DNA of 62,667 nt, the filler included, from Hausera hauseri (taxonomy: Eukaryota), in assembly GCA_046269625.1 (NCBI GenBank). It is 9 parts of 9 records of this genome, joined end to end, with 100 filler letters (N's around TTAATTAATTAA, not from the genome) between each part and the next. Parts side by side here need not be neighbours in the genome. Positions count along the whole stretch, not along the records: positions 48,600 to 58,389 come from JBJURY010289947.1; 8 more parts are not named here. One strand, written 5' to 3'. Shown in pieces: positions 48,600 through 50,036 of this stretch. The notes beneath the pieces were generated by a model, which was given only the letters and a program-made list of their open reading frames with translations, was not told where the DNA came from and made no database searches. How positions within the stretch are numbered: position 1 is the stretch's first letter; each line of letters begins with the position of its first letter. Both the position numbers and the translations under genes were made by a program.

Positions 48600-50036
48600 C
48601 CTACCGTATTTACAATTTCCTCTTAAAAAATACGAACAAGGTTTTTGATTCGTATTTTTACAATTTCTCTTCTCATGTAGAAATGTACATGACTCACCAA
48701 GACGACATCTACCGATTTCAAAATACTTACAAGGCCTTTTATGGTTTCCTAAATTTCTCCGAAAACTGTCATTTCCTTCATTTCTATCTTCTTTGGTGTT
48801 TATTCCAGTTTTATTTGTTCGTTTAGATTTTTCTATTTTCCCATTAGTATAAAAGGAATTCCTTATCGACTTTTCGGAGTGTTTATCTTTGTTTGACATT
48901 AGTACGTTTATCCCATGAACTCCTTCTGCAGCTATACGTTTTAGTTCTGCTTCTTTCTCCACCCATGCTTTTAGGTTATGTACGTTTCGCTTCTTTTCTT
49001 TGTCTTCTCGATAACGTTCCCACGTTAATACCATAACTTCAGGTAGTTTTTGAATTAGATTTTGATACAGTAATCCACCTTCCAACTCTGTCTCTCGATC
49101 TAAATTTTTCAGTCTCACGATGACTGAATCTAATAATGTGGTGAAAGAATCCAACTCTTTGATATTGTGTACACTTATTTTTTGGAATCCCATAACTTCT
49201 GACATAAGAGATGCGTAGTTCCTATGGTTTCCCCCATAATACCGTTCCAGTTTTTCGAGTGCTGTTTTGTAGGAAGTTTCAGAAAGATCGTAATTTTGGA
49301 CTAAACGTTTAGCCTCTCCGTATAAACAATTTTCCAGTTGAATTTGTTTATCTATACTGGAAAGTGATGTTTTATCTACGCACGTTTTGAAGATTTGTCG
49401 CCATTTTTCAAACTCAGCGACATTTCCACCGAATTTTGGGAGTTCAATACGTTTCAGTTTAGGTGCTAGATACTCATTACGAGTTTCCTTTTCCTTCTTG
49501 TCTTCTAGGGTCGTAAAGTTCTTCATATGAATCATCTTTATCACTTCCTCATTTTGTGTCTCAATGTTTTTGGATTCATCGACCAATTCTGCCAATTCTT
49601 CTTTTTTCTTCAACTTTCTAGCGAGTAGCTTCAAGGCGCTGAGTTCTATGGAGAGTTTTTTAAAGATTTCGTCATAATTATCATTTTGTTGTAGAAATTC
49701 GTCTTCCGTCAGTCTTCCGTTCATCAATGATTTCCTCTGGATGGTTAATTCAAATCTCAATACATCTTTTGCCAAAAGCCTACCTTCGAAGTCATCAACT
49801 TCATTAATACTTCCTCCTTTTAGTCCATGAGTGACATTTAAGCTCGTTCCATGTGGGATTCTATGTAAAGTCTCATAATCTCCCCATTTTTTGTTTTTGT
49901 GAATGATTTCAATTTCCTCTATTTTTACGTGACATTTCTTAGATATTTTCCGCTTTAGTGAGTTAATAGACTCAGTTTCATCAACATCAATAACTATGGG
50001 GGGTTTTGGTTTACTTTTACAATTATTTGTTTGCAT
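48600..50036 (-). CDS. Ubiquitin-like domain fused to BEL/Pao Gag with CCCH zinc fingers
   Basis: IVIDVDETESINSLKRKISKK..IEIIHKNKKWGDYETL..GTSLNVTHGLKGG, then LKRIELPKFGGNVAEFEKWRQIF (BEL gag), then CKYFEIGRCRLGESCTFLH. Confidence 0.85.

Follow-up and report, generated by a model that had tools for sequence, protein, structure and literature searches.

A pair of CCCH zinc fingers at the position of the Gag Cys-His knuckles in a small lineage of BEL/Pao retrotransposons

RESULTS

The element and its circular assembly

The window analysed here is a stretch of 62,667 nucleotides from the Hausera hauseri assembly GCA_046269625.1, in which contigs are strung together by N/PacI spacers. The contig bounded by such spacers at 48600-58389 carries on its minus strand an LTR retrotransposon of the BEL/Pao type. 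It was assembled in circular form, with 9713 nt of unique sequence, and opened inside gag; its domains run, in order, from a ubiquitin-like head and a helical bundle through the capsid, a basic linker and two CCCH fingers to protease, reverse transcriptase (RT), RNase H and integrase. The contig is BEL/Pao by its Pol and its capsid, though it does not have the triple Cys-His hallmark of the family. Its gene order is that of the Belpaoviridae, Gag followed by PR-RT-RNase H-IN, and is found unbroken in the related protein P0152; its Pol domains are of the BEL type (Peptidase_A17, 169 bits; DUF5641, 71 bits) and are nested among CCHC BEL proteins in our trees. Among named database entries, the closest relatives are proteins of molluscs (Haliotis, Mya).

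The two ends of the contig (48600-48676 and 58313-58389) are identical over 77 nt. An identical repeat at both contig ends is the usual mark of circular assembly, and we read this one as an assembly overlap rather than an LTR. The minus-strand frame leaving at 48600 and the one entering at 58387 have 25 identical residues in common, the last of the end piece and the first of the start piece, so that the gag frame is continuous. Among public runs the stretch is present in one, X1; no RNA data set was listed as containing it, which has no bearing on expression. In X1 the join from 58312 to 48600 is spanned by a contig of 954 nt, with 9 differences over 606 nt, and by one of 2037 nt; as this run may be the window's own sample, its support counts as re-assembly. 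The second contig represents a copy about 86% alike at a depth of 410, and hence a related high-depth family exists. Sample-independent support comes from the proteins P0001, P0152 and P0153, each of which carries both fingers in a single unbroken chain. The earlier note, which had proposed a tandem of C-x7-C-x5-C-x3-H motifs with the second completed through the terminal overlap, had allowed that the join might be an assembly artefact; both motifs were located, and the artefact is not borne out.

Two CCCH fingers between capsid and protease

Finger 1 (48675-48731, minus strand; Pfam zf-CCCH 32.1 bits) and finger 2 (58295-58351, minus strand; 20.9 bits; its first half also read at 48600-48638) are both C-x7-C-x5-C-x3-H, within the C-x7/8-C-x5-C-x3-H pattern, and both score above the curated cut-off of PF00642 (20.5 bits). 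They lie 12 residues apart. From capsid to protease the only cysteines are those of the two fingers and one in the linker, and a six-frame scan of the window gave no CCHC match in any frame, in agreement with the earlier note, which saw no such knuckle ahead of the protease. When the residues of the finger region were shuffled, a single motif arose 14 times in 100,000 trials and a pair never did in 100,000; a looser pattern gave one extra match in the window, at 24402, apparently by chance.

The same finger pair follows the capsid in three other elements, represented by P0001, P0152 (with its fragment P0147) and P0153, whose Gags are 37-40% identical to that of the window. Their zf-CCCH scores are 43 bits for P0001, 34.2 for P0153 and 16.2, under the cut-off, for P0152, which is an unbroken 1926-aa Gag-Pol in one frame with all the BEL domains and both fingers. 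All eight Gag fingers of the four elements keep the C/C/C/H ligands and an aromatic residue two places past the third Cys; an aromatic three places past the first Cys is present in seven of them, and one two places past the second Cys in five. In P0152 and P0153 the second finger has 7-4-3 spacing. The two fingers are separated by 12, 10, 3 and 3 residues in the four elements, unlike those of a fixed tandem module, and the fingers are of low confidence in structure models (mean pLDDT 48 for the P0153 model). None of the four combines CCCH with CCHC. The CCCH fingers in this BEL/Pao Gag are real.

The rest of Gag

The N-terminus of Gag is a ubiquitin-like domain (49812-50036, minus strand) running from the first Met to a Gly-Gly (LKGG end). 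Its Pfam ubiquitin score lies under the cut-off of 25.4 bits (20.4 bits, E 4.6e-4), and the head can be aligned to P0003, whose ubiquitin is clear. In an AlphaFold model of the window Gag piece (67 sequences, mean pLDDT 80), residues 10-75 match ubiquitin structures (Z 8.2-9.0, rmsd about 2-3), which gives the predicted Gag a ubiquitin-like fold of about 75 residues with a Gly-Gly end. A predicted three-helix bundle (49506-49811, minus strand; pLDDT mostly above 90) separates it from the capsid (48927-49475, minus strand; DUF1759, Pfam 66 bits), predicted to have the two-lobed retrotransposon capsid fold. In Foldseek the top rows for the capsid model were the PNMA2 capsid (best E 0.008), and the fold matches were middling (Copia capsid Z 8.9, PNMA2 Z 8.8, dArc1 Z 8.2). 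Between capsid and fingers lies a basic linker (48732-48926, minus strand) that is predicted to be disordered (pLDDT below 50 at residues 392-432); by hand count, the 55 residues ahead of finger 1 hold about 15 K/R against 7 D/E.

The Pfam ubiquitin cut-off was passed at the front of Gag by 5 of the 12 proteins scanned (P0003, P0025, P0030, P0045 and P0155), from which the wider group appears to capture host domains, and a Gly-Gly stands at the equivalent place in the window, P0001, P0152 and P0154. A ubiquitin or ubiquitin-like head with Gly-Gly thus extends beyond the CCCH clade; some members have it in clear form, and in the window it is degenerate. P0155 and P0030 have the ubiquitin head together with CCHC, so the head likely predates the finger swap. 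Other host-like pieces were seen in these Gags: in P0001 Gag runs in frame into a coiled coil (CFAP58 domain; residues ~720-1016), in the C-terminal half of P0004 Gag or Gag-protease is joined in frame to host-like coiled-coil sequence, and in P0025 an HSP90 piece lies ahead of the ubiquitin.

Pol, LTR candidates and the leader

The aspartic protease (57692-58042, minus strand) is in the same frame as Gag, with its LLDDAS motif 92 residues past finger 2 and a DUF1758 match below the Pfam cut-off (E 6.7e-4). RT and RNase H (56037-57300, minus strand, RT start approximate) bear the motifs CDIAEMF, YMDD and FCDAS. The RT frame is interrupted near 56,900; P0152, P0154 and P0155 are open across the matching point, so the break is a lesion of the window copy. 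The integrase (54285-55400, minus strand), identified by Pfam and by its HHCC and D-D-E motifs, has a DUF5641 tail; its Integrase_H2C2 match is below the Pfam cut-off, and the domains DUF1759, DUF1758, Peptidase_A17, Integrase_H2C2 and DUF5641 come in BEL order.

A purine-run scan gave a candidate polypurine tract followed by TG, a possible LTR start (53811-53826, minus strand). A second LTR end and a clear primer-binding site were looked for in the contig (48600-58389) and not found; a circular contig would carry one collapsed LTR. About 3.7 kb separate the candidate LTR start from gag and hold ORFs of 170, 431 and 328 aa (50545-53476, minus strand), the last two in frame with one stop between them (50545-52827). 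None of the three has an assigned family. The latter two had no Pfam, PDB or phage match, and their Atlas matches were weak leads only; we therefore did not retain a reading of them as env or as a fragment of an RNA virus. The ORFs are possibly cargo. Most of this region is at far lower depth in X1 than gag-pol. The high-depth family tracks the window to 49997, which takes it across most of the ubiquitin-like domain, before it passes into unrelated sequence, so that leaders differ among copies. In another X1 contig, position 54228 is followed, after 8 letters, by 53124, which hints that this 1.1-kb stretch occurs in tandem or as a circle.

CCCH Gags among the relatives

A protein search over 1.84 billion representatives gave 3463 matches. 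The best 150 of these comprised 65 with CCHC, 2 with CCHC and a pseudo-CCCH, 1 with CCCH, 3 with neither and 76 that were too short; the other 3 did not align to the capsid, and were P0147, the CCCH fragment, and two CCCH repeat proteins of cellular type. P0033 and P0062 were considered as bearing both finger types and rejected as such: the pseudo-CCCH is formed by the third BEL finger, and they were counted as CCHC. After added searches the set comprised 189 proteins; its capsid-aligned relatives were labelled 108 CCHC, 4 CCCH (3 elements) and 66 unscored. Of 32 more distant BEL loci, several of them near-copies, 25 had CCHC, 7 neither and none CCCH. At the DNA level no further CCCH member was found in viral contigs, a first metagenome scan or prokaryote genomes; a second metagenome scan gave just distant (~30%) BEL elements, and an alignment-based protein search gave 3 matches with no new CCCH member. 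On these counts CCCH is rare among the relatives reached, which are best matches from a lineage whose host genomes are poorly covered, and not already common in the clade, as the earlier note had allowed it might be.

A probably single, derived origin

Our trees hold BEL/Pao rows only, with no non-BEL outgroup, and omit the finger columns. In the capsid tree (117 of 175 rows, the unscored ones removed except 7 close ones) the CCCH rows, 4 against 106 CCHC, fall on one branch with SH-aLRT 98, and none of 500 shuffles was as low. The CCCH branch received 83 in the protease tree (three CCCH rows) and, with two CCCH rows each, 99 in the RT-end/RNase H tree and 100 in the integrase tree; a quick protease-RT tree joined the window and P0152 at 91, with P0154 and P0155 as sister at 92. 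The CCCH elements thus lie on one branch in five trees (SH-aLRT 83-100), and the group of window, P0152, P0154 and P0155 has support of 91, 92 and 100, the last value in the integrase tree. Support was weaker in a careful 25-row capsid tree (75 bootstrap, 90 SH-aLRT), where a single change was found in 76% of the bootstrap trees and a two-gain grouping, the one alternative compared, was rejected (p-AU 8e-9).

The sister pair P0154/P0155, the nearest Pol relatives, retains CCHC, which makes the swap derived and old. Its direction, from CCHC to CCCH, is read in this way because all other scored rows and the described BEL/Pao elements have CCHC. The window and P0152 share 37% identity over Gag and 46% over the RT-integrase part, which again points to an old swap after which the fingers were kept. 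The earlier note had described the swap in the window copy; it is real there, and the trees refine the claim, in that the swap is a derived, lineage-level trait of a small old clade and not of this copy alone.

DISCUSSION

Our results suggest that in a small BEL/Pao lineage two CCCH fingers replaced the three Cys-His knuckles of Gag, likely once and from a host RNA-binding gene, and that the pair likely binds and packages the element RNA while the linker probably serves annealing. Taken as a whole, we regard this reading as probable. The CCCH pair stands exactly at the position of the Cys-His cluster of the relatives, and the replacement announced by the earlier note holds for the cluster; a role in RNA packaging, which the same note had attached to it, is likely from position and residues. 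We favour capture from a host gene as the source of the fingers, judging from sequence comparisons. In two PDB searches, with 17 sequences in each, the fingers matched CPSF30, TTP, U2AF35, ZC3H-type and MBNL proteins, with CPSF30 and TTP the best solved matches for finger 1. The window fingers agree with CPSF30/YTH1, tristetraprolin, U2AF35 and MBNL in ligand spacing, the Gly before the second Cys and the aromatic positions, and differ from these cellular proteins in being embedded in a retroelement polyprotein. No donor gene was identified among the cellular CCCH matches. The tandem type of TTP consists of two C-x8 fingers with an 18-residue linker and a conserved lead-in; the window pair, in contrast, has x7 spacing and a 12-residue linker, and linkers in the lineage span 3-12 residues.

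We propose that template switching in the course of reverse transcription could have brought in a piece of host mRNA encoding the fingers, which would then have displaced the knuckles in one ancestor. Each finger would hold one zinc and stack RNA bases on its conserved aromatics, as cellular CCCH fingers do; the aromatic past the third Cys lies at the base-stacking position of the TTP-family and CPSF30 structures. The element protease would release a nucleocapsid piece in which the fingers may select the genomic RNA, the basic linker probably carrying out the annealing needed for primer placement and strand transfer, and host deubiquitinases would probably cleave the ubiquitin-like head after its Gly-Gly.

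Could the fingers have arisen or be used in another way? Of 83 CCHC clusters of BEL elements, 78 themselves finish in a C-C-C-H run, made of the last Cys of knuckle 2 and the third finger, and 69 of these runs are spaced 5-4-3, so remodelling in place, followed by duplication and with no capture, needed testing; the 7-4-3 second fingers of P0152 and P0153 also fit it. We consider it improbable. A profile of the BEL cluster gives at most 1.7 bits on the CCCH Gags, against 74-81 on the CCHC sisters, and so finds no sequence trace of the cluster in them, whereas the profile of the eight Gag fingers gives up to 30 bits on two cellular proteins and at most 4.7 on the 83 BEL knuckle clusters; both tests are biased, the two cellular controls having been chosen as matches of the window Gag and the CCHC sisters lying inside the training set. 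The glycine and aromatic pattern agrees with the cellular fingers, and no intermediate was present among the 189 proteins and 32 loci. By sequence, then, the fingers resemble cellular CCCH proteins such as CPSF30 and TTP and not the third BEL finger. That the whole arrangement is an assembly artefact, or an isolated chimera joining a dead copy to a host gene, could be suspected from a contig cut inside finger 2, a broken RT and a relative, P0001, itself fused to a host-like coiled coil; the two X1 contigs over the join, the unbroken Gag-Pol of P0152 and the concordant capsid and Pol trees leave it hardly credible, and the unbroken relatives already refute it.

Granting capture, the packaging might still be done by the basic linker, with the finger pair regulating translation, stability or granule entry of the element RNA in the cytoplasm, or competing with host CCCH proteins of defence and decay. 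CCHC arrays have been assigned roles in virion assembly, RNA packaging and reverse transcription, and LTR lineages with no such array are also on record, in the portions of that article available to us (PMC2774666); since some LTR elements work without a zinc array, position alone is no proof of a packaging role. Cellular CCCH proteins function in mRNA decay and antiviral defence, according to an excerpt of PMC5031192, and the linker is indeed basic. Against this, the fingers sit precisely where the cluster was lost, and no element of the four has both types, which fits a one-for-one replacement better than an added accessory; we think this division of labour unlikely, if the least unlikely of the three alternatives. 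A wider reading than our proposal of a single replacement in this lineage is possible, and we hold it tentatively: a cellular CCCH reader could take over entirely from the retroviral-type nucleocapsid in LTR retroelements, with this BEL lineage packaging by sequence-specific base recognition of the CPSF30/TTP kind with no knuckle at all, and the swap having recurred in separate LTR families, here with a Gag primed by a cleavable ubiquitin.

How does the element compare with known systems? It shares with BEL/Pao elements (Belpaoviridae, Semotivirus; Sinbad, Pao, Suzu) the DUF1759 capsid, the order protease, RT, RNase H and integrase, and the Peptidase_A17 and DUF5641 domains, and Gag and Pol are in one frame in P0152; it differs in its ubiquitin-like N-terminus and in the ~3.7 kb with unassigned ORFs before gag. 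The triple Cys-His box is given as a hallmark of BEL/Pao, with Tas as a reported exception, in the available part of PMC554778; the window Gag does not have it, and the box is outside the definition in the ICTV profile. For Saci-2 of Schistosoma mansoni, the available text of a citing paper (PMC2582038) describes a CCCH motif in Gag instead of CCHC. We liken Saci-2 to our element through that description; it is placed in the Gypsy/CsRn1 phylogeny, an LTR family other than BEL/Pao, so this was probably an independent event. In the Burro giant Gypsy elements of planarians, the accessible sections of PMC6431247 describe an internal ubiquitin/SUMO-like domain in polyproteins whose Gag keeps CCHC; both are LTR polyproteins with a ubiquitin-type domain, which in the window is N-terminal with a Gly-Gly end. 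The 'CCCH' of the text seen of PMC2864245 was set aside as a motif report, being part of element names. No CCCH Gag or ubiquitin-headed Gag in BEL/Pao was found in our full-text literature searches, a scope that stops short of Repbase, GyDB, the full ICTV report, supplements and most subscription papers, which could list the clade.

The CCHC knuckle is the standard module of genome packaging and annealing in retroviruses and LTR retrotransposons. A lineage that has kept working over a Pol divergence down to ~46% identity with an unrelated finger in the knuckle slot is thus a natural swap experiment, in which one can test what parts of the nucleocapsid's work depend on the knuckle fold and what parts need no more than a grip on RNA plus a basic tail, with the CCHC sisters P0154 and P0155 as matched control. 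Some zf-CCCH matches in animal gene sets may, by the same token, be transposon Gags.

Other sequences in the window

On another contig, a fragment of a Monjiviricetes-type fusion glycoprotein (21229-22122, plus strand; Pfam 85.8 bits) is probably an endogenous viral piece. The contigs at 1-3011 and 58656-61654 are 69% alike in DNA, and the first carries a type-B DNA polymerase fragment, which suggests Polinton-like elements. Two decayed LTR elements (36629-39009 and 44387-46803), about 67% alike, have integrase and RNase H in Gypsy-like order, and an 814-aa ORF (9442-11886, plus strand) ends in a C-terminal RING finger with no second Pfam domain.
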